From positions 64,172 to 128,171 of the forward strand of contig JANLHI010000032.1 of assembly GCA_024654525.1 (NCBI GenBank): 64,000 nucleotides of DNA, given 5' to 3'. Each line of letters begins with the position of its first letter. Position 1 is the first letter of the stretch. Made by a program: the position numbers and the translations under genes. The notes under the pieces are model-generated. The model worked only from the letters and a program-made list of their open reading frames with translations. It searched no databases and was not told where the DNA came from. Below are positions 16,322 to 64,000 of this stretch, one piece after another. This stretch comes from Patescibacteria group bacterium (GTDB lineage: Bacteria; Patescibacteriota; Minisyncoccia; UBA6257; 2-01-FULL-56-20).

Positions 16322-16669
16322 ATGCATTTTGCGCTTGTCTATATCGTGCAACGCGCGTTTTTTCGAATAGCGGACTTTTTTCACCATTGGTATGGTGACG
16401 GGTCCCGTGTTGTCTTTCATAATTTTATTTCCATGCTTGAAAGACTTGATAGGAAGTTTGCCGTAAAAGTGACGTTGCGATATTTTTTCGAGCCACTCTA
16501 TCAGGATTATAGCGCGGTGGGGAGGGTATTGGGGGTGTTATTTCGGACTATTCGGGTGAGTGTGGGTTTGGCGGTATATGCGGCAACGGCGATTTTCTAT
16601 GCGATAATTTTTGCGGCGTGGTGTGCGACACCTGCCGTGCTTCTTTTCTATGTATTCACCGGATTTTAG
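16322..16669 (+). CDS. Small membrane protein (115 aa). Possibly the N-terminal part of the downstream ClpB-like gene through a frameshift.
   Basis: C-terminal hydrophobic helix. Overlaps the downstream ORF by 59 nt in a different frame. Confidence 0.35.
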   Translation: MHFALVYIVQRAFFRIADFFHHWYGDGSRVVFHNFISMLERLDRKFAVKVTLRYFFEPLYQDYSAVGRVLGVLFRTIRVSVGLAVYAATAIFYAIIFAAWCATPAVLLFYVFTGF

Positions 16670-19169
16670 CAACGCCACCATAGTGTTTGATGATCCTCGT
16701 TTGCGCATGACGGGTGCGGGGCGTCTTCTTGTGCGCGTAACGGCATATATCTCATATCTTTTTCTTGTAGTTGCGACGGTAACACTCTTACTTTCCGATA
16801 TTACTTCTCTTCGTGCCACGGGAGCACTATTAGCTCTTTTTCTTATTGATAGGGCACGACGATCGGGATGTGGAGATTGCTCTATCAAAAAACTTTCTTC
16901 AGCCGGCACGATAAATGCGAAGCGGTGTATTTCGCCACGTACATTCGCGATTTTAGAACGTGCATTTGATAAAAGCGGTATCACACGGGTAAATGTTTTG
17001 ATTGAGGTGGCTCGGGATATACTGCGCAATTCCGAAGTGAGTGAAGGACTTTCTCGTTTGGAAGTATCTTTGAGTGATTTTGATGCGAGACTTGATGCGC
17101 TTGCGAAGAGTGATAATGCGGGAGATTCGCGTGAAGAACGAAGACGTAAGCTCGGAGCACTTGCGACCACTGCGTTTGCGCGGGCGATTAATGCGCATCA
17201 TGAATTTATTCAGCCATCCGATTTTTTTGCGGCGCTTGCATCTCAAGACGATCTTTCTCTTCAGCGGCTTTTTGGAGTTTTTTCGTTGAGTGAAGACGAT
17301 ATTGCGGCGGCAATGCTTTTCGGAGAGCTTACTCGGCACGCGGTACGTTTTCGCCCCCCCGTATCTCTTGGGGGATTCGCGAAGGTGGTTCGTCGCGGAG
17401 TGCGTCACCGTGTTATGAATAGGGCATGGACGGCTCGCCCAACTCCCACGCTTGATAGATATGGAACTGATTTTACCGATCTTGCGCGCGCAGGTTCGGT
17501 TGGTTTTCTTGTCGGACATGATGAGGAATTTTCTCGTCTCCTTGATGTGCTTGCGCGTTCCACAAGCTCCAATGCTCTTTTAGTGGGAGATGCCGGTGCA
17601 GGAAAAGAGGCAATGATTGCAAATCTTGCATTTCGACTTATTACCGATGAAGTACCCTCTTCTCTTTTTGATAAGAGATTGGTGGGGATAGATTTAAGCT
17701 TGCTTGTCGCCGGGGCATCCTCCGAAGATCTTCACGCTCGCGTTGCGGCAATTGTGGAGGAGATTACGGATGCGGGGAATATCATTCTTTATCTTCCCGA
17801 TATGCACAATCTCATCAAAACTACTTCGGCCGCCTCTCTTTCAGTTGCTGATGTGTTAATTCCCGTGTTAATGGATAATTCATTTTCTGTGGTGGGTACT
17901 ACGTATCCTCGGGATTATGCAGCGCATATAGAAACAAGGAGTGATTTTTCCGGGCTTCTTGAAGTAATTCGGGTAAATGAAATCAACGAACGCGATGCAG
18001 TTACCGTACTTATTTATGATGCGGTTATCATCGAGAGAAAGTTTCGTATGCGCGTAACGCTTGCCGCAGTAAAGAGTGCGGTTATGCTCTCAAAGAAATA
18101 TTTACGCGAAAAACTTTTACCTTCAAGTGCGAGTGAGCTTTTAAGAAATGCTCTTGCACTTGCAGAGCGTCGTGGGGAAAGCATGTTGCGAAGGGAAGAC
18201 GTGATACGTGCGATGGAGTCTCGGGTAAATGTTCCGGTACACGAGGCGACCGGGGATGAGGCACAGCGCCTCCTGCATCTTGAGGATATTATTCATGAAC
18301 GGATGATCGATCAGGATGAGGCGGTGCGTGCCGTAGCCGATGCATTGCGGGAGTATCGAAGCGGACTTTCTCGGAAAGGAGGACCTATTGCCGCTTTTCT
18401 TTTTGTGGGACCCACCGGTGTCGGGAAAACCGAGCTCGCAAAAAATCTTGCGCGAGTTCACTTCGGATCCGAGCAGATGATGGTGCGGTTCGATATGACT
18501 GAATATCAGGATGCGGAAAGTATCAGGCGTTTCATAGGTGCTCCCGACGGTAGTACGAATGGAGCACTTACGCGCGCAGTCATGGATCGTCCTTACAGCG
18601 TTATTTTGCTTGATGAATTTGAAAAGGCTCATGCGGACATCCTTAATCTTTTTTTGCAGGTATTTGATGATGGGCGTCTTACCGACAGCATAGGAAGAAC
18701 GGTGAGTTTTGAAAATACGATTCTTATTGCCACTTCCAATGCCCATTCGGACATTATTATTGATGCTTTGCGACAAGGGCAGGGAATGACGGACGTGGCG
18801 GAATATTTAAAAAGTCGATTGACCGACGTATTTCGTCCGGAGCTTATCAATAGATTTTCAAAAATCGTGGTGTTTAAAAATCTTAATATTGATGATTTGA
18901 ATAAAATTGCCGCGCTCCAGATCAAAGAAGTCGCTTTTCCGCTTGCAGAGCAGGGTATTAAATTTGAAGTTGATGCTTCGGCGATAGATCTTCTCACCAA
19001 GCAAGGATATGAGCCGGAATTTGGCGCGCGTCCTTTGCGTCGCGTAATAGAAGAGAAAATTCGAGCTCCGCTTGCGCAAGAAATTTTGAAAGGTTCGATT
19101 GTGCGAGGGGTAACGGTGAAGATTATTGCGGAGGGGGAGGAGTTCAAGTTTATTCCACGCGAACAGTAG
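16611..19169 (+). CDS. ClpA/ClpB-family AAA+ ATPase with a transmembrane N-terminus and a degenerate first nucleotide-binding domain
   Basis: NBD2 has canonical Walker A GPTGVGKTELAK and Walker B ILLDEFEKAH. NBD1 reads GDAGAGKEAMI (Thr to Glu) and LYLPDMHNLI (DE to DM). Transmembrane helix around residues 40-65. Confidence 0.8.
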   Translation: MRRGVRHLPCFFSMYSPDFSNATIVFDDPRLRMTGAGRLLVRVTAYISYLFLVVATVTLLLSDITSLRATGALLALFLIDRARRSGCGDCSIKKLSSAGTINAKRCISPRTFAILERAFDKSGITRVNVLIEVARDILRNSEVSEGLSRLEVSLSDFDARLDALAKSDNAGDSREERRRKLGALATTAFARAINAHHEFIQPSDFFAALASQDDLSLQRLFGVFSLSEDDIAAAMLFGELTRHAVRFRPPVSLGGFAKVVRRGVRHRVMNRAWTARPTPTLDRYGTDFTDLARAGSVGFLVGHDEEFSRLLDVLARSTSSNALLVGDAGAGKEAMIANLAFRLITDEVPSSLFDKRLVGIDLSLLVAGASSEDLHARVAAIVEEITDAGNIILYLPDMHNLIKTTSAASLSVADVLIPVLMDNSFSVVGTTYPRDYAAHIETRSDFSGLLEVIRVNEINERDAVTVLIYDAVIIERKFRMRVTLAAVKSAVMLSKKYLREKLLPSSASELLRNALALAERRGESMLRREDVIRAMESRVNVPVHEATGDEAQRLLHLEDIIHERMIDQDEAVRAVADALREYRSGLSRKGGPIAAFLFVGPTGVGKTELAKNLARVHFGSEQMMVRFDMTEYQDAESIRRFIGAPDGSTNGALTRAVMDRPYSVILLDEFEKAHADILNLFLQVFDDGRLTDSIGRTVSFENTILIATSNAHSDIIIDALRQGQGMTDVAEYLKSRLTDVFRPELINRFSKIVVFKNLNIDDLNKIAALQIKEVAFPLAEQGIKFEVDASAIDLLTKQGYEPEFGARPLRRVIEEKIRAPLAQEILKGSIVRGVTVKIIAEGEEFKFIPREQ

Positions 19170-19236
19170 ATAAGGTATTTATTTGTATATTGTGAGAATA
19201 TAGGAATTGGTATGGTTAATAGTGCTTAACTGTTTC

Positions 19237-20979
19237 ATGCATATAGTCTCAAACAAGGATATTGCGCGTGCGCTTGGCGGTATTGCCGAGCATCTTGAAA
19301 TGCAAGAAGTTTCTTTTAAATCTCGCGCATACGAGAAAGCCGCGGAAATAATAGAGGGAATGACGGAATCTGTTGCGAGTTTGTATGCGCAAGGGGGATT
19401 GGGTGCGCTTGAGGCTATTTCCGGTGTAGGAGCATCTCTTGCAGAGAAAATAGAGGAATTTCTCACGAAAGGGAAGATTGAGTATTATGAAGCACTTAAG
19501 AAAAAAATACCGGTGGATTTGGATTCTTTCGCGGGGATTGAAGGGTTGGGGCCAAAGAGTATTTTAAAGTTATACAAAGCGCTTAATATTAAAAATTTTG
19601 AAGATTTAGAAAGGGCTTTGCGTGTCGGGAAAGTGCGCGAAGTTACGGGGTTTGGAGAAAAGACGGAGAAAAATATTCTTGCAGGGATTGCATTTATGAA
19701 GCGATCAGCAGGACGTCTGATCGTGAGCGATGCGGTCCCTTGCGCGCGCGAACTCGAAGAAGCTCTTCGTGCGGTGAAGGGGGTGGAGCAGATTACCATT
19801 GCGGGTTCTCTTCGTCGCAGAAAAGAAACGGTGGGAGATATTGATGTACTTGCGGTGACGCATGATCCTGTTCGCCTTATGACTTTTTTTACTTCGATGC
19901 CCGGAGTGGAGAGAGTACATGCTCGCGGTAAGACAAAATCTTCCGTGCGACTTTCATTGGGAATTGACGCGGATATTCGCATAGTGCCGCCGGAATCTTA
20001 TGGTGCGGCGCTCAACTATTTTACCGGTTCGAAAAATCATAATATTGCATTGCGTCGGATTGCGGTCAAAAAAGGGCTTACGCTGAACGAATATGGATTG
20101 TATAAAGGAAACGCGCGTGTGGCAGGTGAAACGGAGGAAGGGATATACGAGGCGCTTGGGATTGAATATGTGGAGCCGGAGTTGCGTGAAGATAAAGGAG
20201 AGATTGAAGCGGCCACTCGACACGTTCAGGGTAAGATGCCAGGACTTCCGAAGCTTATCGGGTATGACGACTTACAGGGTGATTTACAAATGCATTCTAC
20301 GTGGACTGATGGTAAGTATTCGATTGAAGATATGGCACGTGGTGCTGCAGCGCGAGGAATGAAATACATTGCAATCACCGATCACACCAAGCGTCTTGCA
20401 ATGACACACGGACTTGATGAGAAACGTATTAAAGATCAATGGAAAGAAATTGATTCCATAAACAAGAAAATGAAAGGTGTTATCACGGTGCTCAAGGGCA
20501 CCGAGTGCGATATTTTAAAAGACGGTTCGCTCGATTTTTCTGATGATATATTGTCGAAACTTGATATAGTGGGTGTGTCGGTGCATTCCTATTTTAATCT
20601 TACGCGCAAAGAGCAAACGGAACGTATTGAGAGAGCAATGCGGAATCCTCATGTGGATATTCTTTTCCATCCTACGGGGCGCATAATTGGGAAGCGTGAT
20701 GGGTATGATGTCGACATGGGGAAAATAATAGATATTGCGAAAGAGACGGGGACAGCGCTTGAAGTGGACTCTTTCGATCGTTTGGATTTGAAAGATGAAT
20801 ATGTTCGAGAGTGCGTCAAGAAAGAAGTTCGTTTTTCCATTGATTCCGATGCGCATGCGCCAGTCCATTTCGAGTATCTTGAATATGGAATTGCACAGGC
20901 GCGGCGTGGTTGGGCGACAAAAAAAGATGTTCTCAATGCGTGGCCATTGGAAAAGATGCTCGGATTTTTGAAGAAATAA
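19237..20979 (+). CDS. DNA polymerase X family protein with a C-terminal PHP domain
   Basis: HhH motifs (GIEGLGPKS). Pol-beta-like nucleotidyltransferase GDIDVLAV. PHP histidines (HSTWTDG, ITDHT). Confidence 0.85.
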   Translation: MHIVSNKDIARALGGIAEHLEMQEVSFKSRAYEKAAEIIEGMTESVASLYAQGGLGALEAISGVGASLAEKIEEFLTKGKIEYYEALKKKIPVDLDSFAGIEGLGPKSILKLYKALNIKNFEDLERALRVGKVREVTGFGEKTEKNILAGIAFMKRSAGRLIVSDAVPCARELEEALRAVKGVEQITIAGSLRRRKETVGDIDVLAVTHDPVRLMTFFTSMPGVERVHARGKTKSSVRLSLGIDADIRIVPPESYGAALNYFTGSKNHNIALRRIAVKKGLTLNEYGLYKGNARVAGETEEGIYEALGIEYVEPELREDKGEIEAATRHVQGKMPGLPKLIGYDDLQGDLQMHSTWTDGKYSIEDMARGAAARGMKYIAITDHTKRLAMTHGLDEKRIKDQWKEIDSINKKMKGVITVLKGTECDILKDGSLDFSDDILSKLDIVGVSVHSYFNLTRKEQTERIERAMRNPHVDILFHPTGRIIGKRDGYDVDMGKIIDIAKETGTALEVDSFDRLDLKDEYVRECVKKEVRFSIDSDAHAPVHFEYLEYGIAQARRGWATKKDVLNAWPLEKMLGFLKK

Positions 20980-22822: not shown

Positions 22823-22931
22823 AGATATGAAATACTACTGCGCTTTCTGAAGCACGCTCTATCATACCGTATCGGTTTGCATGTGTCAAAATATTGCAGT
22901 ATCGGAAGGGGAGTATGATAATGTGGGAGGA

Positions 22932-23741
22932 ATGGATATAGATATGCTTGCGATGAGGGTGCTTAAAAGCTCTAAATACCGGCATGTAACGCCGGAGCTT
23001 GTTGCACGGCTTTGTCGGGTGGAAGTCGAGAAATATAAGGACGGGAAGGATCATGATAAAGATGTGCTCAAGGCGGTTAAAAACAAACTACATCAGGTTG
23101 TCGGAGCGTTTATCGAAGGACGCCCCGATTATAAGAAAGCCCTTCGCATAATCCGCGCCGAAGCGAAAGACATGGATGACGCGCGTGTGCGTACGGCGCT
23201 TGCCACAGCAATGCGACTGCATGCTTCTACGCGTGAACGTTTTCCATTTCTCGACACGTTTTATAAAGAGGTGTTTCGTGATGTGGTGCAACCCACGCGT
23301 ATTCTTGATCTTGCGTGCGGGTTAAATCCACTTGCGCGTCCATGGATGCATATCTCCGATGAAGCGGAATATCTTGCGTGTGATGCACTTTCTGACATGA
23401 CGGAGTTTAATGGCGCGGTATTTGAGGCGCTCGGATGGAAGGGGCATTCATTTACTCTTGATCTTTTGAGCGACAAGCCTCTTCCCACTGCGGATGTGGT
23501 GCTACTTTTGAAAACCCTTCCGTGTCTTGAGCAGGTGGAGAGCGGTGTAAGTGCACGCATTCTTGCGCGCATCAACGCGCCCCGCGTGGTAGTATCATTT
23601 CCGGGAAAAAGTTTGAGTGGGCGTGAAAAAGGAATGAAAGAAAATTATACTACTCGTTTTCTTGAAGTGCTTAAGGGAACCGGATGGATGCAGGAGAATT
23701 TGGTGATAGGGGAGGAGCTTGTATTCCTGCTTTCGCGTTAA
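22932..23741 (+). CDS. 16S rRNA (guanine1405-N7)-methyltransferase, ArmA/Rmt (FmrO) family
   Basis: Blocks recalled from ArmA/RmtB: SKKYR, KLHQ..G, LHASTRER..LD.FY..VF, ILDLACGLNPLA, VVLLLK.LP.LEQ, VSFP.KSLSGREKGM.ENY, IGEEL. Confidence 0.8.
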   Translation: MDIDMLAMRVLKSSKYRHVTPELVARLCRVEVEKYKDGKDHDKDVLKAVKNKLHQVVGAFIEGRPDYKKALRIIRAEAKDMDDARVRTALATAMRLHASTRERFPFLDTFYKEVFRDVVQPTRILDLACGLNPLARPWMHISDEAEYLACDALSDMTEFNGAVFEALGWKGHSFTLDLLSDKPLPTADVVLLLKTLPCLEQVESGVSARILARINAPRVVVSFPGKSLSGREKGMKENYTTRFLEVLKGTGWMQENLVIGEELVFLLSR

Positions 23742-25401: not shown

Positions 25402-25750
25402 GGGGATGATCGGCTTTGATGGAGCTGGAATGCATACCTGCGAGCCGAGTGTGAATCTCGCAAACTTCACAAACCTATTAACTGACAACTCAAAAGTTGC
25501 AGCTCCGGCATTCGCCTACGCGTAATGCTGCTTGCTCGCCAAAACTTTAGTGGCGGCGGGGAGGATCGTGCCATCGGTGTCTCTTCGGTGAATCACGGTC
25601 TTATATAAGGAGGCTCGTCTCATAGTGGTTACTCTGTGCCCTATGGGATTAAAGTACATGGAGTATTCGTACTACTTTGTAGCACTACGCTCGTAGAGGG
25701 TATGTGTCACCCAGTTTCAGACGAGGGTTCAATTCCCTCCATCTCCACCA
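25402..25750 (+). ncRNA. ssrA: tmRNA (ssrA)
   Basis: 5' GGGGATG pairs with 3' CATCTCCACCA. tRNA-like T-arm GAGGGTTCAATTCCCTC. Internal tag ORF GCA AAC TTC ... GCC TAC GCG TAA. Length about 349 nt. Confidence 0.85.
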
Positions 25751-27391: not shown

Positions 27392-28309
27392 ATGACAGAA
27401 TCGAAAGGAAAAACTATGATCCATTTTTCAAATGGGATGAATGCCCAATATTTCGTGGCGAGCGGGGCGCTCGCGTTTGACGGGAAGGGATGGCCTTGGG
27501 AATGGCCGTTGCGGTGGCTGGGGCTGATTGATACCGATCCTTTTGCGGTTGTGGCAAAAAGTCTTATGCGCGTGCCGTGGAAAGGAAATCTCCGTTGGTG
27601 GAAGCCGTGGGAGTGTGTCCGGCTCATCAGAGACGGTTCGGTGAATAAGGTCGGTCTCACTAATCCGGGAGCTGAGTGGTGGTGCAGGGAAATCGGTCCT
27701 CGGATAAAGATTCGAAACATTCGGCTTATCGTATCCCTTTTTGGGACTACCGAGGAGCTTGTTGAAATGACTCGGATGGTCGATGGATTCGACATCGTGG
27801 GAATCGAGGTGAATTGGTCGTGTCCGAACAAAAAACACGAAGACACAACGGGTGCAATTATCGAAGGTGTCCGTGCAGTGAAGGAAGAAACAAATCAACC
27901 GGTTATTGCGAAGCTTTCCGTGGCGCAGGACTATGTCGCGATTGCGAAGGGTCTTGTGGGAGTTGCGGAAGCGATTTCCATCAATTCCGTACCGTGGGAA
28001 ATGGTCTATCCGGGTAAACTAAGTCCGCTCCGGCGACTCGAAAAACGGGTCGGCGGCGGGGGTGGTGGAGTTTCCGGAAAGGCGGCGCAACCGTTTACAT
28101 GGGAGACGGTGCGTCGTTTGTGCAAGGAGGTTCCTGAGATGCCGGTCATCGCACCGAGTATCTGGGAATATGGTGATATTGCGAAAGTCCGCGCGCTTGG
28201 CGCAAAAGCGGAGAGCTTCGGCGCAATCTTTTTGCGCGCGCCGTGGCGACCCACTGAATTTGTGCGGCGGGAAATCAAAGAACTACAGAGAGAAAGGAAA
28301 AACTCATGA
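27392..28309 (+). CDS. Dihydroorotate dehydrogenase family (PyrD-like) TIM-barrel oxidoreductase
   Basis: Motifs NPGAEWW, GIEVNWSCPN, VIAKLSV and GGVSGKAAQP match class-1 DHODH-like enzymes. GC-rich relative to flanks. Confidence 0.6.
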   Translation: MTESKGKTMIHFSNGMNAQYFVASGALAFDGKGWPWEWPLRWLGLIDTDPFAVVAKSLMRVPWKGNLRWWKPWECVRLIRDGSVNKVGLTNPGAEWWCREIGPRIKIRNIRLIVSLFGTTEELVEMTRMVDGFDIVGIEVNWSCPNKKHEDTTGAIIEGVRAVKEETNQPVIAKLSVAQDYVAIAKGLVGVAEAISINSVPWEMVYPGKLSPLRRLEKRVGGGGGGVSGKAAQPFTWETVRRLCKEVPEMPVIAPSIWEYGDIAKVRALGAKAESFGAIFLRAPWRPTEFVRREIKELQRERKNS

Positions 28310-29433
28310 AAATCAGCGAAGATAAAAACACGATTACATTCAGAATTACGGATGACTGGCACTTTCATTTCCGACAGGGTGCGCTCCTCGAGTTCCTGGT
28401 GCGGTTACTCATTAAACATGGGTGGCGAGGGAGGGTGGTGGGGGAGCCGAATATTACACCGCCAATACTCACCGGCGACAAAGCGGTTGTGTACCACGAC
28501 CGGATAATGGGAAGTGCGGAGAGGCTGTGTTCCACGTTCAAGATGATCCGGGTAATGCAAATCACCGAACAAACCACGCGGATGATGGTGCGTGCCGCGT
28601 ATTTCGCAGGTGTCCGCATTTTCAAAGTTTATCCGCGCTGGGTGACGACGAATTCGGAAAACGGCGTGGTGGATTACACGATGATTTATCCCGCACTCGA
28701 CGAGCTTCAAAAGCTTCGGCAAGAAAACTATAATCCCGGAGAGCCGGACGTAGTGGCGCAGTTTCACGCGGAAAGTCCTCGGGAAGAAATTGAAGGACTG
28801 TTCAAAGAAGAGGCGTTTCTTACGGACGAGTGTGAGATGGGCGGTATCAATTGCAAATTCCCGGAATTGCCGATGACGATAGAACATATCAAGTCGGCGT
28901 TCGGTGTGAAGTGGATACTCCAGCAACCCGGTACGCGGAAAATCGCGGCGGGTATCACTATCCAACATATTACCAATACCGTGGATGATGTTCTGGGCTA
29001 TAGCAGGCGTAGCGGTGGACTTGTGTGTGTACATGATGGGTTTAAACCACATGCGGGACTCCGTGCGGATCGCGCCGCGGTTCAGGAAGTGGTGCTCTCG
29101 GGAAATCCGCTATTCTTTTACGCGGGTGACGGCGCGTGGCACTTCCGAAAAAAGAAGGAATGTTGCGGGGCAAGTTGCGGAGCGGCGAATACACTCGCGG
29201 CATTACCGCTCCTCATCAAGTTTTTCAAAGGAAACAATATGCTACACCGATTGGAACCGTTCACTTCGCAGTTCGGCGCGGAGTTCTACGGGTATCCGCT
29301 GAACGAAGGGACGGTGACATTCGTACGGAAGCCATGGAAAATTCCGGAGACACTTCCGGTGATCGGCGTAGTGGATGATGTGGTTGTCCCGTGGCGATTC
29401 GGCGAAGAAATGGAATGGCAGATTACGGACTAG
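28306..29433 (+). CDS. pyrC: Dihydroorotase, E. coli-type (class II)
   Basis: N-terminal DDWHFHFRQG (cf. DDWHLHLRDG). KVYPRWVTTNSENGV. C-terminal cysteine cluster KKECCGASCGAANTLAALP (cf. RKESSCGCAGCFNAP). Confidence 0.8.
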   Translation: MKISEDKNTITFRITDDWHFHFRQGALLEFLVRLLIKHGWRGRVVGEPNITPPILTGDKAVVYHDRIMGSAERLCSTFKMIRVMQITEQTTRMMVRAAYFAGVRIFKVYPRWVTTNSENGVVDYTMIYPALDELQKLRQENYNPGEPDVVAQFHAESPREEIEGLFKEEAFLTDECEMGGINCKFPELPMTIEHIKSAFGVKWILQQPGTRKIAAGITIQHITNTVDDVLGYSRRSGGLVCVHDGFKPHAGLRADRAAVQEVVLSGNPLFFYAGDGAWHFRKKKECCGASCGAANTLAALPLLIKFFKGNNMLHRLEPFTSQFGAEFYGYPLNEGTVTFVRKPWKIPETLPVIGVVDDVVVPWRFGEEMEWQITD

Positions 29434-29545
29434 CTTCGCAGGTCTGATAACTAACGAAACACATAACAATTGGAAGCCCTTACGTGGATAACGCGCAGGG
29501 GCTTTCTTATTTTTAATTGCCGTGGTTTCGAGGTAAAGTTTTCAT

Positions 29546-31300
29546 ATGGAAAAGAGGTCGTGCCAGCATTGCAAAGAACAATTTATGGTTGATGCCGCGG
29601 ATCGGAATTTTTATGCGCGTCTTGATGTTCCGCCACCGATATTGTGCCCCACGTGCAGGATGATACGGCGGCAACTTTTTCGGAACGAACGCGCACTTTA
29701 TAAGCGTGCGTGTGATTTGTGTAAAAAAAGCGTGGTGAGTATGTATGCGCCCGATTCGCCCTACATTGTCTATTGTGTTGAGTGTTACCAATCGGACAAG
29801 TGGGATTCGATGAGTTACGGGAAAGAATATGATTTTTCGCGCCCGTTTTTTGAGCAGTTCAACGAGCTGATGCATGTGGTGCCGCGACGGGCGCTCTATA
29901 TTGATTTCGCGACAGCGAGTGACTATACGAATTGGGGTGTGAATTTAAAAAATTGCTATCTCGTGTTCGGCGGGCACCATTACGAGGACTGCAACTATTC
30001 GAGTCAAAGTTTCTATCTCACCGATTGTACGGACGTGGATTTTTGCCAGCGGAGCGAATCGTGTTACGGCTCGGTGCATCTCCGGCACTGCAGTCGTGTG
30101 CGATTCAGTTCGTTCTCCGAGGATTGTTCGGATTCGTGGTTCTTGTATGGATGTCGCAATTGCCAGAATTGTATAGGATGTACCAACTTGCGGAATGTGT
30201 CGTGCCATATTTTCAATGTCCGTTACTCAAAAGAAGAGTATGAAGCAAAAGTCAAAGAATTTTGTCTTGATACCGAAGAAGGGCTTATGCGCGTGCGCAA
30301 TAAGTTTTCACAACACACATTACAGTTTCCGCGGAAGTTTGCATGGGTACGGAATGCGACGGGATCGACCGGGGATGACCTTGATAATGTGAAAGATTGT
30401 GTCCGGTGTTTTTCCGCAACGGAGGTGGAGAATTGCCGATACTCGTTCTTTATCCCTACGCAGGCGAAAGACAGTTATGACATTGACCATGTGGGGATGA
30501 GCGCGCAACTCACGCTTGAGCTCGTAAGCGGGTTTGGGACGGAGCGCGTAGCGTTTAGCAACCGCGTGTATTACACGCATGATGCCTATTATTGCGATGA
30601 CTGTTATAACTCTGCAAACCTTTTTGGATGCGTAGGACTCAAGAAAAAAGAGTATTGTATTTTGAATAAGCAGTATTCCAAGGATGAGTATGAAAAGATG
30701 AGAATGAAAATTATTGAACACATGACGCGCACGGGGGAATACGGCTTGTTTTTCCCGCCGGAACTTTCTCCTTTTACCTATAAAGAAACAGTTGCGCAGG
30801 AATACTTTACCCTCACTAAAGAGGAGGCCAGCGCGCAGGGATTTCGCTGGAAAGATTCCGAAAAAAAGCAGTATGAGCCGACCATTCATGTGGGGGATAT
30901 TCCTGCGGGCATCGGGGATGCAAAGGATTCACTCACGGGAGAAATTTTTGAGTGTTTTCATAAAGGGGGATGCAATGAACAATGCACAGAAGCGTTCCGG
31001 ATTATCCCGCAGGAGCTTCAGTTTTTGCGAAAGCTTGGAATTTCATTGCCGCGTCTTTGTCCGAATTGTCGGCACTATGAACGATTACGAATGCGAAACC
31101 CAATGAAATTATGGCGCCGTATGTGCCAGTGTACTCGCACGAATCAAGAATCAGGAAGCGAGAATCAAGCCAGATATCAGAATACCGTCACTCATTTCCA
31201 TGGAGGCGTCCCATGCCCGAATGAATTTGAAACCTCCTACGCGCCGGATAGGAAAGAGATAGTATATTGTGAAAATTGCTATCAATCCGAAGTTGTATGA
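29546..31300 (+). CDS. Cysteine-rich 584-aa protein with paired zinc-ribbon modules at both termini and a Cys-repeat core
   Basis: N-terminal CQHC...CPTC and CDLC...CVECYQSD. C-terminal CFHKGGC...CPNC and YAPDRKEIVYCENCYQSE. The two terminal modules look like duplicates of each other. The middle region has Cys every 10-13 residues. Confidence 0.6.
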   Translation: MEKRSCQHCKEQFMVDAADRNFYARLDVPPPILCPTCRMIRRQLFRNERALYKRACDLCKKSVVSMYAPDSPYIVYCVECYQSDKWDSMSYGKEYDFSRPFFEQFNELMHVVPRRALYIDFATASDYTNWGVNLKNCYLVFGGHHYEDCNYSSQSFYLTDCTDVDFCQRSESCYGSVHLRHCSRVRFSSFSEDCSDSWFLYGCRNCQNCIGCTNLRNVSCHIFNVRYSKEEYEAKVKEFCLDTEEGLMRVRNKFSQHTLQFPRKFAWVRNATGSTGDDLDNVKDCVRCFSATEVENCRYSFFIPTQAKDSYDIDHVGMSAQLTLELVSGFGTERVAFSNRVYYTHDAYYCDDCYNSANLFGCVGLKKKEYCILNKQYSKDEYEKMRMKIIEHMTRTGEYGLFFPPELSPFTYKETVAQEYFTLTKEEASAQGFRWKDSEKKQYEPTIHVGDIPAGIGDAKDSLTGEIFECFHKGGCNEQCTEAFRIIPQELQFLRKLGISLPRLCPNCRHYERLRMRNPMKLWRRMCQCTRTNQESGSENQARYQNTVTHFHGGVPCPNEFETSYAPDRKEIVYCENCYQSEVV

Positions 31301-31595: not shown

Positions 31596-32057
31596 ATGAA
31601 AAAACCAACTGTTAGAATTGTTGTTATGGGCGGATCGATGGAGGGAAATGTGGAAGGGCTCTCTGCGTTGAACGCAGATGAATCACTTGTGGAGCAGTTT
31701 TGTGTCAGAACCAATGTCGCGAAACGTCTCGGACTAGAATTGGAATTTTCCATCATATGCAGGAAAGACAGTGGCGCGATTGAAGACGGCGATCGCGAGA
31801 AGCTGAAGGAGACAATCACTAAAGCAAAAGAATCCAATATTGCCGGAGTACTCGTGGTCCACGGGGAGGACGCGATGGCAAAAACCCTTGCTCATATCCA
31901 AAAAGAGGGGGCTTTACCCCTTCCTGTGGTGTGTGTGAGTTCCAATAGCCCAATCAGTGAGGCGGGTTCGGATGGAGGGTTTGTCCTTGCCCAAGGGTTT
32001 TGCCTCCTCGGGCAGTTTATGGGAAAAGGAGTTCGGGAAGTCGGCTGCGTCGTGTGA
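31596..32057 (+). CDS. Asparaginase/glutaminase N-domain-like protein. Truncated and probably catalytically inactive.
   Basis: Aligns by eye to the asparaginase N-domain (VVHGEDAMAKT cf. ITHGTDTMEET; LPVVCVSSNSPISEAGSDG cf. KPVVMVGAMRP...ADG). The nucleophile motif TGGTIAG reads MGGSMEG here. Only 153 aa. Confidence 0.45.
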   Translation: MKKPTVRIVVMGGSMEGNVEGLSALNADESLVEQFCVRTNVAKRLGLELEFSIICRKDSGAIEDGDREKLKETITKAKESNIAGVLVVHGEDAMAKTLAHIQKEGALPLPVVCVSSNSPISEAGSDGGFVLAQGFCLLGQFMGKGVREVGCVV

Positions 32058-32525: not shown

Positions 32526-32744
32526 ATGAAGAACTCGGTGATAGGACTTAAAGAATTGCGGGAGAACGCGGAACATTATATTTCCCGCGTAGGGAAAGGG
32601 GAATCGTTTATCATTATGCGCCGTTCAAAGCCGGTGTTTAAGATTTCTCCTCCGGAGGATGACGAGCTGTGGGAGCGGGTGGTTGATCTCACGAAGATTA
32701 AAAAAGGAGGAGTCCCAATCGCGGAACTTCTTTCCCGGCTCTAG
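32526..32744 (+). CDS. Type II antitoxin, Phd/YefM family
   Basis: VIGLKELRENAEHYISRVGKGESFIIMRRSKPVFKISP fits the Phd/YefM N-terminal fold pattern. 7-nt gap to the downstream toxin gene. Confidence 0.7.
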   Translation: MKNSVIGLKELRENAEHYISRVGKGESFIIMRRSKPVFKISPPEDDELWERVVDLTKIKKGGVPIAELLSRL

Positions 32745-32750
32745 TGTCTC

Positions 32751-32993
32751 ATGGATAAAATAGAGAAAGCGCTTGCGCGGTTGAGTGCCCGCGAGAGGGA
32801 ATGGGTGAAAGATATGCTTTCACGGCTTCGTTCCGGCGAAGTGAAGGGTGCGGACATCAAAAAACTCAAGGGGCGCGATGATATTTTTCGCGCGAGGAAG
32901 GGAGACGTGCGTATTATCTATCATCTGCGAGACGGAACTACTTTTATTCTTGCGATTGAACGAAAGAGCGAGAAGACATATAAAGGGCTTTAG
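32751..32993 (+). CDS. Type II toxin, RelE/ParE family
   Basis: 80 aa. GDVRIIYHLRDGTTFILAIERKSEKTY matches the RelE/ParE C-terminal pattern. Confidence 0.7.
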   Translation: MDKIEKALARLSAREREWVKDMLSRLRSGEVKGADIKKLKGRDDIFRARKGDVRIIYHLRDGTTFILAIERKSEKTYKGL

Positions 32994-33099: not shown

Positions 33100-33567
33100 C
33101 TACTCCCTTTGCATCTCCCGTTCTATAGTCCGTTTCTTTATCGCTTGTCGTTTGTCATGTTTCTTTTTCCCTCGGGCAAGGGCGAGTTCTATTTTTATTA
33201 AATTTCCTTTGAGGTGGACATTCAAGGGGATAAGCGATGTTCCTTCGCGGAGGGCTCCTACGAGGTATTTTATTTCGTCTTGAGTAAGAAGAAGTTTGCG
33301 GGTTGTGTCTGCGGTGTAATCGGGAGAAACGTTCATGGGTTGATATGCGGGGATTTGTGAGCCTACAAGGAATACTTCTCCCGCCGCACTTCGCGTACCG
33401 CTACGGCGAGCCGAAGCACGAATAATGGCGCGGCTTCCCGCGAGTCCCATACGTTTCGATTTCACGCTTTTTACCTCGTGTCCCTTGAGTATGATTCCCA
33501 CCTCGAATGTTTCGAGGATATCGTAATCAAATCGAGCGCGTTTGTTTTCTGCGAGTATTACCATGCC
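33100..33567 (-). CDS. smpB: SsrA-binding protein SmpB
   Basis: ENKRARFDYDILETFEVGIILKGHEVKS, TRKLLLTQDEI, ARGKKKHDKR. Start taken at the internal Met (MVILAENK). Confidence 0.85.
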   Translation of the reverse strand, partial: GMVILAENKRARFDYDILETFEVGIILKGHEVKSVKSKRMGLAGSRAIIRASARRSGTRSAAGEVFLVGSQIPAYQPMNVSPDYTADTTRKLLLTQDEIKYLVGALREGTSLIPLNVHLKGNLIKIELALARGKKKHDKRQAIKKRTIEREMQRE

Positions 33568-34160
33568 TGTATCATATTGTTTTATAAGAAGACATTCAAA
33601 CGCACGAACCATATAAAAAATAATGCGCGCAACTTTGAGAGTTGCGCGCATGCCCCTTGCTTTCCATAATGAAACCCTCCAATATTTTTGAATGTTCGAA
33701 GTCCATATTTGCCGCTATGGGCAAATTTGAGGAAAGCACCCTTGCTTCTTTCACCGTAACACACAAGAGTTCGGGGTCAAGGAAAGTTTTTGGTAAAAAA
33801 ATGAGAGCATCGGCTTTCCAATGCTCCCACTCACTTTCGACCAACAAGGCGTGTTATCGCCAGGGGATGGCATTGAAGAGCCTTGTATGATCCCCTTTAT
33901 CTTAAAAAAGAAGAGTCTCTGAGGCAAGTCTACTTCCGTTTCTGTGTTTTCTGCGTTATTCTTCAAAAAGAAAAAGGGCGGGGGCTGGTACGTGTTAAAC
34001 CAGACACCCCGCCTTGACGAGAAATTGTTTTTACTTCTTATTAGGAAAAAGTCAAGTGACAGTGGTATTTTTTTATATTGAATTCTCAGGCTCTATCACC
34101 CCCTTCCTTATTTAAGGATTGGATTGTACCACTGTCACTCTTGGGTTTTACTCTATCACT

Positions 34161-41563: not shown

Positions 41564-43222
41564 TTAAATCTCAATCACCACCGGCAGTATCATCGGCCTT
41601 CTCCTCGTCTTGTTGTAGAGGAATTGCCCCAGCTGGTCGCGAATAAGAGTCTTGAGATAGTCCGGTTCGAGCGGTTGGCTCGCGGGAAGGCGAGCGGTGA
41701 GTGCCCGGATGCGCTTGCGCATTTCTTCGAGTAGCTCCTGGTGTTCTTTGAGGAAAATGAAGCCGCGCGAAATAATGTCCGGACTTTTCAAAAGATGTCC
41801 GCCTTTGTCGCGGTCAATAGTAACGATAACCACTACCATGCCTTCTTGCGCCAATGCCCTGCGGTCGCGCAATACCACTTCTTCAACATCTCCTACTCCA
41901 AGTCCGTCCACCATTACATAGGATGCAGGCACGGTTTCTTTCGTGATGCGGAAAGTCTCTTCATTCATGGCGGCAACCTGACCGTTTTCCATAAGAAAAA
42001 CGTTTTGGCGCGGGATGCCGATTTCAACCGCGTTCTGCGCGTTCACGAAGCGCTTGTAGTAATAGCCGTGTACGGGAATGAGGAATTTCGGGTTAAGGAG
42101 TTTCATTGCGAGCTGGAGGTCTCCCTTCGTCGCATGACCCGACGAGTGAATGTCCACTATGTCGGAATGGTAAATGATAGCACCCTGCCGCGCGAGATCG
42201 TCTTTGATGGTTTGTACGCTCCGCTCGTTTCCGGGAATAACCGATGAGGAAAGCATGACGGTGTCCCCGGGTCTGATTGAAACCTGCCGGTGTTCGCCGT
42301 TGATGATTTTCATGAGCGAGGCGTTCGACTCGCCCTGTGCGCCGGTCGAGAGAATGAGAAGTTTGTTATCGCGATATTTGTGAATTTCTTCGAGGGGAAT
42401 AATCGCGCCATCTTTTGTCTTGATAAGTCCGAGGTTTTGCGCAATCTGCACGTTTGACTTCATGGAATATCCCGAGAGCGCCACATGCCGCCCGAGCTTG
42501 CCCGCAATTTTTATCACCTCGCCGATACGCGTAAGGACGGACGCGAACATCGCGACAATGATGCGCCCCTCGGCTTTTTCGAACAGTTCTTCGAGATTTT
42601 TTTCGACAATCCGCTCGGAGGGGGCTCGTTCAATGACATCGGCGCCCGTGCTGTCCGTCATAAACGCGGTAATGCCCATTTTACCCACGCGCTCCAGCTC
42701 GTCGAGGTTATACGCAACACCCTTCGCATCGTACTCGATTTTAAAATCGCCGAGACTCACCACTTTCCCTGCGGGCGTCGAGAGCACCACACCGACGGAT
42801 TCGGGAATGGTGTGTTCAACCGTGAAAAACTCCGCCTTGAAGTGATTCGAGAGCTGGATAACATCGCGCGGTTTTACGTTAACGAAAACGAGCTTCTGAC
42901 GGTTCGGGAAATCATCCTGCCGCTTTTCGATAATGGCGCGGCTCAAAGACGAAGTATAGATTGGAGGATTGCCGAGCTTATCCATCACGTAGGGCAGGGC
43001 ACCTATGTGGTCGTAATGCGCATGCGTGATAATAATCGCGCGGACATTCTCTTTGTGCGCTTCGAGGTATTCCGTATTGGGAATGATGTAATCCACCCCG
43101 GGAGTATTCTCTTCGGGGAACTGAAGTCCGGCATCAATAACGACTATTTCGTTTTTATATTCGAAAAACATCATATTGCGGCCGATGGTGTCCAATCCTC
43201 CGAGAGCCACAAAACGGAGCAT
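41564..43222 (-). CDS. rnj: Ribonuclease J
   Basis: MLRFVALGGLDTIGRNMMFFEY N-terminus, ITHAHYDHIGALPYV, beta-CASP and C-terminal domains. The ORF continues upstream to 43633 through GC-rich repeats (a possible 137-aa extension). Confidence 0.85.
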   Translation of the reverse strand: MLRFVALGGLDTIGRNMMFFEYKNEIVVIDAGLQFPEENTPGVDYIIPNTEYLEAHKENVRAIIITHAHYDHIGALPYVMDKLGNPPIYTSSLSRAIIEKRQDDFPNRQKLVFVNVKPRDVIQLSNHFKAEFFTVEHTIPESVGVVLSTPAGKVVSLGDFKIEYDAKGVAYNLDELERVGKMGITAFMTDSTGADVIERAPSERIVEKNLEELFEKAEGRIIVAMFASVLTRIGEVIKIAGKLGRHVALSGYSMKSNVQIAQNLGLIKTKDGAIIPLEEIHKYRDNKLLILSTGAQGESNASLMKIINGEHRQVSIRPGDTVMLSSSVIPGNERSVQTIKDDLARQGAIIYHSDIVDIHSSGHATKGDLQLAMKLLNPKFLIPVHGYYYKRFVNAQNAVEIGIPRQNVFLMENGQVAAMNEETFRITKETVPASYVMVDGLGVGDVEEVVLRDRRALAQEGMVVVIVTIDRDKGGHLLKSPDIISRGFIFLKEHQELLEEMRKRIRALTARLPASQPLEPDYLKTLIRDQLGQFLYNKTRRRPMILPVVIEI

Positions 43223-43336
43223 GTCGGTGGTGTCCTCGTGAGGAGTATGCGGAGCGTGGTATGAAGCCTCGTGCGAAACGATGGACTGGCGCACCTGTCC
43301 GCCGCTTTGACGAGCGCCTCTACCTGGGCGGTAAGC

Positions 43337-43576
43337 GCCTGCCTGCCGATAGGCATGGCCTGCCTGCCGATAGGCGGGATTTGGTGTTGGGTCGGCGGGT
43401 AAACTTCTTTTTCCGGGTCGGTGTGAGGGACGGGGAGGTGCAATGCGCTGGTGCCCTCCTTCGCTGGTGTGACTTGCGGGAGCGGCCTGCCGACGGGGCT
43501 CTGCCCGGCGCGCACCTGCCTGCCGGTAGGCAGGCCCCGCGTGCCGACCAGATATGCCTTGCCTATCAGCAGGCAG
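43337..43576. repeat. Cluster of four GC-rich near-palindromic REP-like repeats (GCCTGCCTGCCG[A/G]TAGGC...) in the rnj 5' extension
   Basis: Tandem copies at 43337-43354 and 43358-43375, a copy at 43515-43534, and a degenerate copy at 43557-43576. Same element as 31338-31358. Confidence 0.65.
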
Positions 43577-43684
43577 ACCCGTGGCAGGACGATCAAACGA
43601 TTTTTTTTCTGCTGGTTTTTGGTTGTTGAACATAACTGAAATGATTAATAATTTTTTACTTCTTACTACTTTTCTATCCTCTTC

Positions 43685-44020
43685 CTAATACAGTTTTCCT
43701 CCGATAACGGCATCGATTTTATCGGGAACAAGGAGTACACAACTTCCGCTGGCGTCCGGAACGCCGAGCGTCAGTACTTCGGAAGAGAAGGGGCCGATTT
43801 TTCGGGGAGGGAAGTTTACCACTCCGAGTACTCGTTTTCCTTGCAATTCCTCTTTACTATAGTGGGCGACAAGCTGCGCGCTTGATGTTTTGACGCCCAC
43901 TTCGGAACCGAAGTCCACAGTGAGTTTGTATGCGGGTTTCTTCGCTTCGGGAAAATCTTCGACCTTAATGATCGTTCCCACCCGGATGTCGAGTTTTTGG
44001 AAGTCGTCGTATGTGACCAT
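43685..44020 (-). CDS. tRNA-binding domain protein (CsaA/Trbp111-like, EMAP fold)
   Basis: DIRVGTIIKVEDFPEAKKPAYKLTVDFG...GKRVLGVVNFPPRKIGPFSSEVLTL is typical of the tRNA-binding OB fold. Confidence 0.7.
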   Translation of the reverse strand: MVTYDDFQKLDIRVGTIIKVEDFPEAKKPAYKLTVDFGSEVGVKTSSAQLVAHYSKEELQGKRVLGVVNFPPRKIGPFSSEVLTLGVPDASGSCVLLVPDKIDAVIGGKLY

Positions 44021-61855: not shown

Positions 61856-62818
61856 TTACTTTTTCTTGATGTCGTTAATGTCCGCTTCGACCATCAATTT
61901 CACGAGTTCTTTAAACTTCACTTTCGGCTCGAACCCGAACGTTTTTTTCGCTTTTGAAATGTCGCCGATGAGCGTAGTGTTTTTCGCGTTACGAAGGAAT
62001 TTTGGATTTATTTTCACATATTGTTTCGGGTCGAGGTTTGCAAGTCGGAACGCCTCGTCCACAAATTCCTGCACGGAATGTGCCTCGCCTGTCGCAATGA
62101 TATAGTCATCCGCCTGCGGTTGTTGCATGATATTCCACGCCGCTTCCATATACTCGCGCGCGTAGCCCCAGTCTATTTTTGCGGAGAGGTCGCCGAGTTC
62201 CAAAGAATCTTGCAGACCTGCTTTGATGCGCGCCACTGCCTTCGTTACTTTCCGTGTAAGGTAGTCGTCCGGACGGCGAGGGGACTCATGGTTATAGAAA
62301 ATGGCGGTTGCAACGAACATGCCGTACGTCTCGCGGTAAAAGCGACAGAGGACGTAGGCGAGTACCTTCGCGCACGCGTAGGGACTTTGCGGACGGAAAG
62401 GAGTTTCCTCGTTTTGTATTTCTTCTGTGGGGCGTCCGAAAATATTTGAGGATACCGGCTGGAATACTTTTATTTTCGGGTTCAATTGCTTCACGATTTC
62501 AAGGATGCGTCCCACTGCCGCGCCCGTGACGTTGTACTGGAAGTCCACCATGTCGTTTGACCACCCCACGTGGTCTTGGTCGGCTTCGTTGTAAAGCTCA
62601 TCGGGGTTCACCTCGCGGATAATGCGGTAGAGGGATGTCGCGTCCAAAAGGTCTCCACGATGGAGCGTGATGCGCTCCTTGAGGTGCTCAATGTTGCGGG
62701 TGTTTCCCGTCGCGGATTTCCGGTACATGCCGTGCACCTCATACCCCTTCTCAAGGAGTACTTCGGCGAGATAGCTCCCGTCCTGTCCGGTGATGCCCAA
62801 GATAAGCGCTTTTTTCAT
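61856..62818 (-). CDS. GDP-mannose 4,6-dehydratase, second paralog
   Basis: ALILGITGQDGSYLAEVLLEKGYEVHG and YACAKVLAYVLCRFYRETYGMFVATAIFYNHESPRR. Confidence 0.85.
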   Translation of the reverse strand: MKKALILGITGQDGSYLAEVLLEKGYEVHGMYRKSATGNTRNIEHLKERITLHRGDLLDATSLYRIIREVNPDELYNEADQDHVGWSNDMVDFQYNVTGAAVGRILEIVKQLNPKIKVFQPVSSNIFGRPTEEIQNEETPFRPQSPYACAKVLAYVLCRFYRETYGMFVATAIFYNHESPRRPDDYLTRKVTKAVARIKAGLQDSLELGDLSAKIDWGYAREYMEAAWNIMQQPQADDYIIATGEAHSVQEFVDEAFRLANLDPKQYVKINPKFLRNAKNTTLIGDISKAKKTFGFEPKVKFKELVKLMVEADINDIKKK

Positions 62819-62951
62819 AGGAAATATAGCTTATATAATAATGAAATTATCGGGAAATGAAAAGGCGGCGCTTGTGGGCGTCGCCTTTTATGTTGGATCA
62901 GTTGATTATTTCTGCGTGAGCGCCTGATCTTGCGCTACGCAGGAACATCGC

Positions 62952-63659
62952 CTACTTCTGCTGGTAGGCGGCGTCGCAGTCCTGTGGGAAGGGATAGGGG
63001 AGGAGCCCCGTTTCCTCGAGCTGGTCCGCGAAGGCCTTGACGAAGACTTCGTAAAGCCGGAACCAGCGGTCCGCGAGTTTCTTCGCTTTCGGCATTCGGA
63101 GCCAGCTTTCCCATTCGAGGGAGCAACGGACATCGTGGAGGACGGTCTTCGGGTCGCGGTAGGTCGCCGTAGGGTCGGACGTGGTCACATATCGCGGGTC
63201 AAAGGGGAGCAAATTACTGTAATGCTGCCCTGACCGGACGATATTATTCACGCCGATGTTCGCGAGACGGTCGGCATCCTTCAAGACAACGGTGACGGGA
63301 TTGTCCGCGTCACTGTTCTTCTTGTGATGCTCGAGGACTGCCTCAATTACAAGTTCCTGCTCTTCACTTGCAATCCCTTTCACTAGATCGAGATATGAGA
63401 CCACCTTGCTTCGGATGAAAATAACCTTAACTGAAGGCAGTTTCTCATCTCGGATTTCAGGAAAGATGCGATCCGTGTTGTGACACATCCCGGCAATCCA
63501 CGCGAGTTCACCCGTGCGTTCATCCTCGGTGATGAGGGTGGCGTATTGCGCCACCATTAGGGCATGCGTGATGTCGTGCCCGCCGAACGCCTTTTGCTCA
63601 AGATGGTCCTCGCGGACCTTTGCCGTGAGCGCGGCATGTTTTTCCCAGAGTTTGTTCAT
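62952..63659 (-). CDS. HD-domain metal-dependent phosphohydrolase-like protein
   Basis: GGHDITHAL...CHNTDR...EHHKK...LKDADRL pattern (H..HD..H..H..D). GC-rich. Confidence 0.5.
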   Translation of the reverse strand: MNKLWEKHAALTAKVREDHLEQKAFGGHDITHALMVAQYATLITEDERTGELAWIAGMCHNTDRIFPEIRDEKLPSVKVIFIRSKVVSYLDLVKGIASEEQELVIEAVLEHHKKNSDADNPVTVVLKDADRLANIGVNNIVRSGQHYSNLLPFDPRYVTTSDPTATYRDPKTVLHDVRCSLEWESWLRMPKAKKLADRWFRLYEVFVKAFADQLEETGLLPYPFPQDCDAAYQQK

Positions 63660-63803
63660 AGTTTTAAGGAGGATAAACCTCCGTTTTTAAGTTACAGTTG
63701 ACTTGCGATTTCCGCTTCTTTCCACAAGTCCTCCTTGGGAATACGCGAAAACCAACCATTAAAGGTCGGCTGTATTGTAGCATGAAAAATGTGTTTTGTC
63801 AAA

Positions 63804-64000
63804 CTATCGCGCTGTTCGAAACCCCGCCTTCTTGAGGAATTCCTTGAGATACGGGTGCCACTTCGGGTCGATCGCGCTGAACCAGCGGGAGTCTACGCTC
63901 TGGTGGTCGATGATGATGGTATCGCGGATATTCACTTCGGCGCGGTAAACCACCGCAAGCATGTGTGAATTCATTCCTTCGAAATACCCGACGGGGGAGA
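63804..64000 (-). CDS. 3' end of an unidentified ORF that continues beyond the window end
   Basis: Open frame with no stop from the window end to TAG at 63804-63806. GC-rich, coding-like composition. Confidence 0.35.
   Translation of the reverse strand, partial: SPVGYFEGMNSHMLAVVYRAEVNIRDTIIIDHQSVDSRWFSAIDPKWHPYLKEFLKKAGFRTAR

Follow-up and report, generated by a model that had tools for sequence, protein, structure and literature searches.

A Patescibacteria protein family with zinc-finger-like modules at both ends of a duplicated beta-repeat core

Several described proteins come close to the one considered here. Small proteins of Methanosarcina mazei with the motif CxxC-x17-CxxC bind zinc, as seen by inductively coupled plasma mass spectrometry (PMC12704099). 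VirD4-like type IV coupling proteins (T4CP) were surveyed in Patescibacteria in 2025: 5,713 were found in 2,918 genomes, only 148 of them near virB4, and the authors concluded that an exaptation of these proteins "cannot be ruled out" (PMC12102498). Beta-solenoids, among them the pentapeptide-repeat protein AlbG, the right-handed beta-helix AlgE4 and phage tailspikes, are all-beta proteins built of short-period repeats. We analyzed a gene found in a stretch of 64,000 nucleotides (the window) from a Patescibacteria group bacterium (assembly GCA_024654525.1, contig JANLHI010000032.1, positions 64,172 to 128,171 of the forward strand). A preliminary description made from the sequence alone had proposed an open reading frame (ORF) of 584 residues, which is indeed complete, starts with ATG and lies on the plus strand (coordinates are collected in Table 1). 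Its product is 100% identical to MCR4328807.1, a "hypothetical protein" (locus tag NUV53_04875) of a Patescibacteria metagenome-assembled genome (MAG).

The architecture of the protein is A-B-B-linker-A': a zinc-finger-like module at each end (A and A'), and between them two copies of a beta-repeat domain (B1 and B2) followed by a conserved linker. It is soluble and cytoplasmic, and it belongs to a paralogous family of very large size and without a name, whose named hits here all come from Patescibacteria, bar one 2-kb contig. We are highly confident of both this anatomy and this placement. The size of the family, its multiple copies per genome and its restriction to Patescibacteria had escaped the preliminary description, as had the tandem duplication of a domain of about 127 residues in the core. 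A word-indexed search returned more than 6952 relatives at 90% clustering, and an exhaustive profile search 5063 clusters at 50% identity, of which 2205 reach E<=1e-30; full-length proteins of about 550-600 residues make up most of the 150 matches listed. Among GTDB species genomes more than 534 loci were found. The best 80 of these are all titled as Patescibacteria lineages or as unclassified "bacterium" MAGs, the one other being the 2-kb contig, which is labelled Gammaproteobacteria. The named lineages are mostly Parcubacteria (Liptonbacteria, Nomura-, Giovannoni-, Jorgensen-, Staskawicz-, Kaiser-, Niyogi-, Sungiibacteriota, Paceibacterota, Minisyncoccia). Identity reaches 74% with Liptonbacteria proteins, and relatives at 41-60% identity from across the Parcubacteria lineages span 99-100% of the query, so that full-length homology with the A-B-B-A' layout ties the protein to an unnamed Patescibacteria family of about 590 residues. 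The same MAG encodes a 46%-identical paralogue, MCR4328222.1. All named members are called either "hypothetical protein" or "CxxC-x17-CxxC domain-containing protein".

The correspondence between the two ends was examined with BLASTP and, on profiles of 44 family members, with hhalign. Residues 7-84 and 478-582 are 29% identical (E 3e-15 in a two-sequence search), and the N- and C-terminal profiles align with a probability of 99.2% (E 8e-20). The claim that one two-zinc-finger module stands at both ends was thus borne out, and the likeness spans the whole module, beyond the 20-residue stretch first quoted. Each module consists of a treble-clef finger resembling zf_Tbcl, then of a CxxC-x17-CxxC finger. 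The proposed N-terminal cysteine pairs (C6/C9, C34/C37, C56/C59 and C77/C80) were likewise recovered, and the C-terminal cysteines are C470, C476, C480, C505, C508, C527, C529, C557, C575 and C578. The first finger of both modules follows the pattern CxxC..F.I...D..FY.....P.P..C..CR. In the N-terminal copy the core of PF13451 (zf_Tbcl) reads C6xxC9...F13...F22-Y23...P29, P31...C34xxC37-R38, all residues being invariant or at least 90% conserved, and hhalign places the same two-CxxC pattern in the C-terminal copy. The PF13451 score is 16.7 bits (E 0.0074, residues 4-43), under the gathering cut-off of 24 bits; 26 of the 44 members match, with a best E of 6.3e-5, and all of them stay below threshold. 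The Cys, F, FY, P and CR positions are those of zf_Tbcl, a family without established function, so that this likeness tells little beyond zinc binding.

The second finger has the exact CxxC-x17-CxxC spacing at C56-C80 and again at C557-C578, which is the spacing of the M. mazei proteins A00184 and A01980 of PF23477 (zf_Tbcl_2). Those are small, single-domain proteins, whereas the present protein has 584 residues and three further fingers. The protein of the window also differs from PF23477 proteins in having no match to that model at E<=1 (gathering cut-off 27 bits), and the N-terminal finger has lost its cysteines in 14 of the 44 relatives. Matches to PF23477 are present in 14 members, at residues ~49-87, the best (26.3 bits) being sub-threshold. 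The loss of the N-terminal ligands is all-or-none, 30 members having C59, C77 and C80 and 14 none of them. The same holds for C529, H550 and H552, in the 29-residue insert of the C-terminal module: 36 members have all three and eight have none. Such a pattern is typical of metal sites. It suggests four zinc sites in the terminal fingers plus a possible fifth in the C-terminal insert; we infer that the fingers hold structural zinc ions, and the insert would probably bind a fifth one.

The repetitive nature of the core, already proposed, was established in two ways. B1 (residues 113-239) and B2 (262-389) align by hhalign with a probability of 99.9% (E 2.4e-31) as tandem copies, and autocorrelation of the family profile gives a period of 12 residues (z 5.3 in B1 and 4.2 in B2) with a sub-period of three residues; a control segment has no shift above z 2.6 and none at 12. 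Most repeat units share a Cys/Ser column. In both domains a highly conserved cap closes the repeats and leads into a helix: C194-x8-C203-x2-C206-x2-C209-x2-C212 ..NLRNKSYCIFN.QYSKEEY in B1 and C353-x8-C362-x8-C371 ILNKQYSK(E/D)EY in B2. The entropy profile shows that fingers, caps and residues 401-420 are conserved and the repeat bodies variable. At residues 401-420, which carry the motif FFPPELSPFAYNET.AQEY, entropy is 0.7-0.8 bits. An AlphaFold2 model of the core alone (112 sequences) is all-beta: tight turns join strands some 10 residues long, and the predicted local distance difference test score (pLDDT) is 83 overall and about 90 inside the domains. The full-length model has a pLDDT of 74 and a predicted template modelling score of 0.76.

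The cysteines of the core do not behave as those of the fingers. The protein has 38 cysteines (6.5% of residues), eight of them in residues 1-80, 20 in 137-371 and ten in 470-578; the more than 30 further cysteines first counted in the middle were an error, since 20 lie between residues 137 and 371 and 38 in the whole protein. Their regular spacing was right for the first core domain, where they follow each other every 9-12 residues (137-221), and failed for the second, which has just seven. About half of the 20 core cysteines are conserved. The others exchange mostly with Ser, also with Thr or Ala, and conservation is as low as 34% at C149, 18% at C167 and 11% at C350 (64% at C137, 57% at C161). 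Being mostly unconserved, they are not obligatory metal or disulfide ligands, and most of them would be ladder or packing positions. Metal binding in the core could concern only C194, C203, C206, C209 and C212 in B1 and C285, C353, C362 and C371 in B2. Neither a signal peptide nor a transmembrane segment is present in the 584 residues (maximum Kyte-Doolittle value of 0.72 in a 19-residue window), which places the protein, as a soluble one, in the reducing cytoplasm, where disulfides are unlikely. These observations do not sustain the earlier suggestion of a repetitive metal-binding or disulfide scaffold, and a secreted or disulfide scaffold was rejected.

The absence of a known family for the protein as a whole was confirmed by searches of Pfam, NCBIfam and PDB sequences. 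The core has no match in these three collections or in PADLOC, either as a single sequence or as a 44-sequence profile. For PDB sequences in particular the profile gave nothing, and the single-sequence matches are at chance level (one at E 0.16, the others at E 1 or above). Foldseek searches of the PDB returned noise only for the full-length model and, for the core model, only beta-helix and pentapeptide-repeat proteins (E 1e-4 to 1e-2). Membership in these folds was rejected, as no real superposition is obtained (TM-score 0.09-0.17, root-mean-square deviation (rmsd) 15-19 A); in the models the matches are a local resemblance of repeats and no shared fold. The core thus shares with beta-solenoids the all-beta, short-period repeats, and differs from them by its period of 12 with a three-residue sub-period, by its Cys/Ser ladder and by the lack of any Pfam pentapeptide or beta-helix match. 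In BFVD one sizeable match was found, A0A5B8IEK9, a cysteine-rich protein of 138 residues from Mimiviridae sp. ChoanoV1, which resembles one B domain (target-normalised TM-score 0.73 over 122 columns, 20% identity, E 4e-8); the target structure is itself a prediction, for a viral protein not yet characterised, the superposition has an rmsd of 8 A, and the automatic label "TNFR-Cys domain-containing" reflects the cysteine pattern only.

Phage and defence collections were also considered. The PADLOC-DB anti-phage defence models give no family at E<=0.1. In PHROGs, phrog_15341, of unknown function, matches residues 155-391 (E 6.3e-5); the match is weak and shared by only 8 of the 44 members, the weak matches as a whole being to families of unknown function in 8 and 6 of the 44. 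No tblastn match was obtained in 50,697 phage records, and IMG/VR has one related fragment. On these grounds a phage origin was set aside as unlikely. DNA mimicry is not supported either, the B domains being not strongly acidic (net charge about -2 each). A search of the literature returned nothing on this family. The finger types are known, though functionally uncharacterised. The beta-repeat core, the A-B-B-A' layout, the paralogue arrays and the ATPase link set out below were not found described in the libraries and papers searched.

The distribution of family genes was analyzed in 82 loci, i.e. the window and 81 related loci, whose fetched flanks amount to about 0.93 Mb. In 49 of the 82, two to six family genes follow each other in tandem on the same strand. 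These paralogues are about 40-50% identical and their subfamilies recur across genomes, so the copies are ancient and specialised, not recent amplifications. The commonest neighbours are soluble ATPases of the TrwB/VirD4/TraD-HerA type (PF10412, DUF87, TraG-D_C). They accompany the family in 23 of the 81 related loci, and their genes are interleaved with family genes and co-directional with them in 33 cases out of 34. Six of the 34 ATPases carry a zf_Tbcl_2 finger themselves (PF23477, E 8.5e-11); they are the long forms of loci L052, L044, L046, L066, L071 and L079. Long forms have 620-700 residues and end in the finger, and short forms, of 440-500 residues, lack it; in the long form read at L052 (2021-4123) the finger is followed by a long Pro/Ser/Lys-rich tail. 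None of the ATPases read as examples has a transmembrane segment. The same-strand interleaving at these 23 loci recalls type IV coupling proteins (VirD4/TrwB/TraD) and their substrate adaptors. In contrast to these, the ATPases read here are soluble, and most are encoded away from virB4. The arrays showed no relaxase or type IV secretion channel gene, and in the window such an ATPase is missing. The survey corresponds to about two T4CPs per genome, and the family flanks to one per ~27 kb, a density some ten times higher or more.

Other neighbours recur as well. In 16 of the 81 loci dnaK, dnaJ or both are encoded on the same strand no more than about 6 kb away; a gene joining Sigma70_r4 and HARE-HTH is near the family in 11 loci, leucyl-tRNA synthetase (LeuRS) in 8 (the window also counted), CutA in 6, and a membrane-anchored protein of about 172 residues with an R-x4-H motif in 5. 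This last protein has one N-terminal transmembrane helix and a helical domain with the motif (AHRVRNDLVH), which may be HEPN-like; its gene recurs between T4CP-like ATPase genes and family arrays (L025 3986-4504, L057 2009-2710 and three more loci). Family arrays stand between dnaK and dnaJ in L052 and L061. In L083 the order is F-F-CIRCE-hrcA-grpE-dnaK-TM-dnaJ-F-F, where F is a family gene, TM stands for transmembrane and CIRCE for the controlling inverted repeat of chaperone expression, with HtrA and ClpB downstream. The near-perfect CIRCE of L083 (2991-3017, TTAGCACTT-N9-GAGTGCTAA) has a family gene on one side and on the other hrcA, which it precedes. No second one was found in the roughly 1 Mb of related loci, and the operator is absent from the window, so that a heat-shock regulation of the family through CIRCE was rejected.

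Taken as a whole, the protein is tentatively best explained as a zinc-stabilised scaffold or adaptor of an ATP-driven machine of these bacteria and not as an enzyme. The conserved termini, the caps and the motif at 401-420 would dock onto an invariant partner, which may be a nucleic acid, the soluble VirD4/TrwB-like ATPases whose genes neighbour the family in other genomes, or both, and each ancient paralogue would owe its own specificity to the variable surfaces of B1 and B2. That the adaptor function is coupled to the orphan VirD4-like ATPases is a possibility of slightly lower standing. Rather unlikely, in its full extent, is the proposal that the family is the missing partner of thousands of such orphan ATPases, and that the paralogue arrays form an unrecognised ATP-driven cytoplasmic machine unrelated to conjugation. 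Further components of this machine might be the short and the long, finger-bearing T4CP-like ATPases, the small membrane-anchored R-x4-H protein and CutA, and it would often be wired into a dnaK-dnaJ or secDF neighbourhood. Several observations weigh against this set of proposals. The finger matches of family proteins are all under the Pfam gathering scores, and the net charge of modules A and A' is only +2 to +4. The copy in the window is solitary: no further family copy, T4CP-like ATPase or other finger-bearing ORF was found within the 64 kb. An ATPase is absent within about 6 kb in 58 of the 81 related loci, and the shared synteny is partly inherited, because these loci are phylogenetically related.

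Two other explanations appear improbable to about the same degree. The dnaK/dnaJ neighbourhoods, the arrays inserted between these two genes, the heat-shock gene order with HtrA and ClpB at L083, a ClpB-like gene 10 kb upstream in the window and the cysteine content would fit a stress or proteostasis factor, i.e. a zinc- and thiol-rich holdase or co-chaperone like Hsp33 or DnaJ co-expressed with the hrcA-grpE-dnaK-dnaJ operon. Most loci, however, are away from chaperone genes, no CIRCE stands directly upstream of any family gene (none is present in the window even at three mismatches, and the single one in the related loci is in front of hrcA), the DnaJ motif CxxCxGxG and an HMM (hidden Markov model) match to PF00684 are lacking, and there is no Hsp33 match. 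A stand-alone nucleic-acid binder, with a role in RNA metabolism, transcription or translation that it plays through its four fingers (treble clefs or zinc ribbons) and independently of the ATPases, would account for the Arg/Lys-rich helix after each first finger (CRMIRRQLFRNERALYKR and CRHYERLRMRNPMKLWRR) and for recurrent housekeeping neighbours such as Sigma70_r4+HARE-HTH and LeuRS, and a link with transcription has been proposed for the M. mazei proteins (PMC12704099). It sits less well with the small charge of the modules and with the lack of any match to characterised nucleic-acid-binding families, and it leaves the tandem arrays of ancient paralogues unexplained.

Still less probable is a translocated effector or host-interaction protein that the VirD4-like ATPases would recognise for export and whose functional surface would be the variable, beta-solenoid-like core. 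Stable multi-zinc folds are poor secretion substrates, and the protein has no signal peptide. The adjacency of T4CP-like ATPases, the diversified arrays and the weak structural neighbours, which are beta-helix adhesins and tailspikes, are what such an effector would lead one to expect, but the synteny is core-chromosomal (secDF, dnaK, leuS) and not island-like, and the ATPases read as examples are free of transmembrane segments, while genes of this kind seldom lie close to virB4 (PMC12102498). Least probable of all is an iron-sulfur or redox protein whose B1 motif CxxCxxCxxC binds a cluster. C203, C206, C209 and C212 are 95-100% conserved and C194 93%, as a cluster ligand set would be; B2, however, keeps only the x8-spaced cysteines (C353, C362, C371) without the CxxC triplet. 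The motif moreover lacks the CP of the ferredoxin CxxCxxCxxxCP, and none of the 44 members has a Fer4 or radical-SAM match.

Table 1. Features of the family gene and of its upstream region (window positions; residues are those of the 584-residue protein)
Feature	Position	Strand	Remarks
Complete gene, 584 aa	29546..31300	+	ATG start, TGA stop
Terminator-like GC-rich hairpin, GGAAGCCCUU...AGGGGCUUUC then UUAUUUUU	29472..29514	+	minimum free energy -33.2 kcal/mol, z -3.5
GAGG Shine-Dalgarno-like motif	29530..29533	+	12 nt upstream of ATG, by sequence reading
N-module finger 1, residues 4-43 (C6, C9, C34, C37)	29555..29674	+	zf_Tbcl-like treble-clef; Cys 98-100% conserved
N-module finger 2, residues 56-84, C56-x2-C59-x17-C77-x2-C80	29711..29797	+	CxxC-x17-CxxC / zf_Tbcl_2-like
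Core domain B1, residues 113-239	29882..30262	+	12-residue beta repeats, Cys/Ser ladder, cap, then helix
Core domain B2, residues 262-389	30329..30712	+	duplicate of B1, cap then helix; pLDDT about 90
Aromatic/Pro-rich conserved segment, residues 398-440	30737..30865	+	consensus YGEFFPxELSPFAYNETxAQEYFPLTKE
C-module finger 1', residues 470-513 (C476, C480, C505, C508; invariant C470, H472)	30953..31084	+	
C-module finger 2', residues 527-582, C527...C557-x17-C575-x2-C578	31124..31291	+	with 29-residue insert

The neighbours of the gene in the window are housekeeping genes. Upstream lie a pyrD-like gene and pyrC; the latter had been named as neighbour and is recovered with TIGR00856 (E 2e-56), though below the curated cut-off. 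The two genes (305 and 375 residues, 27392-29433, plus strand) overlap by 4 nt and look operonic. Their scores are far from the NCBIfam equivalog cut-offs (79 against 269 bits for the pyrD-like gene, 191 against 293 bits for pyrC), and they are divergent pyrimidine-biosynthesis genes of a reduced genome. The terminator-like hairpin of Table 1, missed by a consensus terminator scan, sits after pyrC, which is why the family gene is probably transcribed on its own. The gene had also been placed in a GC-rich block. GC is indeed raised there, only mildly: 0.50-0.53 at 28-30 kb against about 0.46 in the window. Two other blocks, 42000-44000 and 62000-64000, reach 0.53 against ~0.45.

Downstream are found an asparaginase-N fragment, a Phd/YefM pair, smpB and argS. 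The fragment is an ORF of 153 residues (31596-32057, plus strand) which matches the N-terminal domain of asparaginase/GatD only (PF00710, E 5e-11) and would be either a truncated gene or a stand-alone domain. The Phd/YefM antitoxin (72 residues) scores at the Pfam cut-off; 6 nt behind it comes an ORF of 80 residues without Pfam match, and the two (32526-32993, plus strand) are probably a type II toxin-antitoxin pair. The smpB gene (33100-33651, minus strand) and the transfer-messenger RNA gene (25402-25750, plus strand, tag DNSKVAAPAFAYA) are ~7 kb apart and flank the family gene. Further upstream on the plus strand, 22881-23741 encodes a ribosomal RNA methyltransferase with a strong match to the FmrO family (PF07091, E 9.5e-53), which has aminoglycoside-resistance enzymes among its members, and 16611-20979 a ClpB-like AAA+ protein of 852 residues, then a PolX-type polymerase with a PHP domain (590 residues).

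Patescibacteria account for much of bacterial diversity, and their lineage-specific genes are mostly without assigned function. More than 5000 clusters at 50% identity, often with several copies per genome of about 1 Mb, represent a heavy investment for reduced genomes, in a protein whose core domain has no entry in Pfam or NCBIfam and no PDB fold that superposes on it. The duplicated beta-repeat domain with its Cys/Ser ladder may, judging from the models, be a new repeat fold. The linkage with soluble VirD4-like ATPases gives a testable handle on the published question of T4CP homologues away from virB4 (PMC12102498), and there is a substantial chance that this family marks a new machine specific to Patescibacteria.

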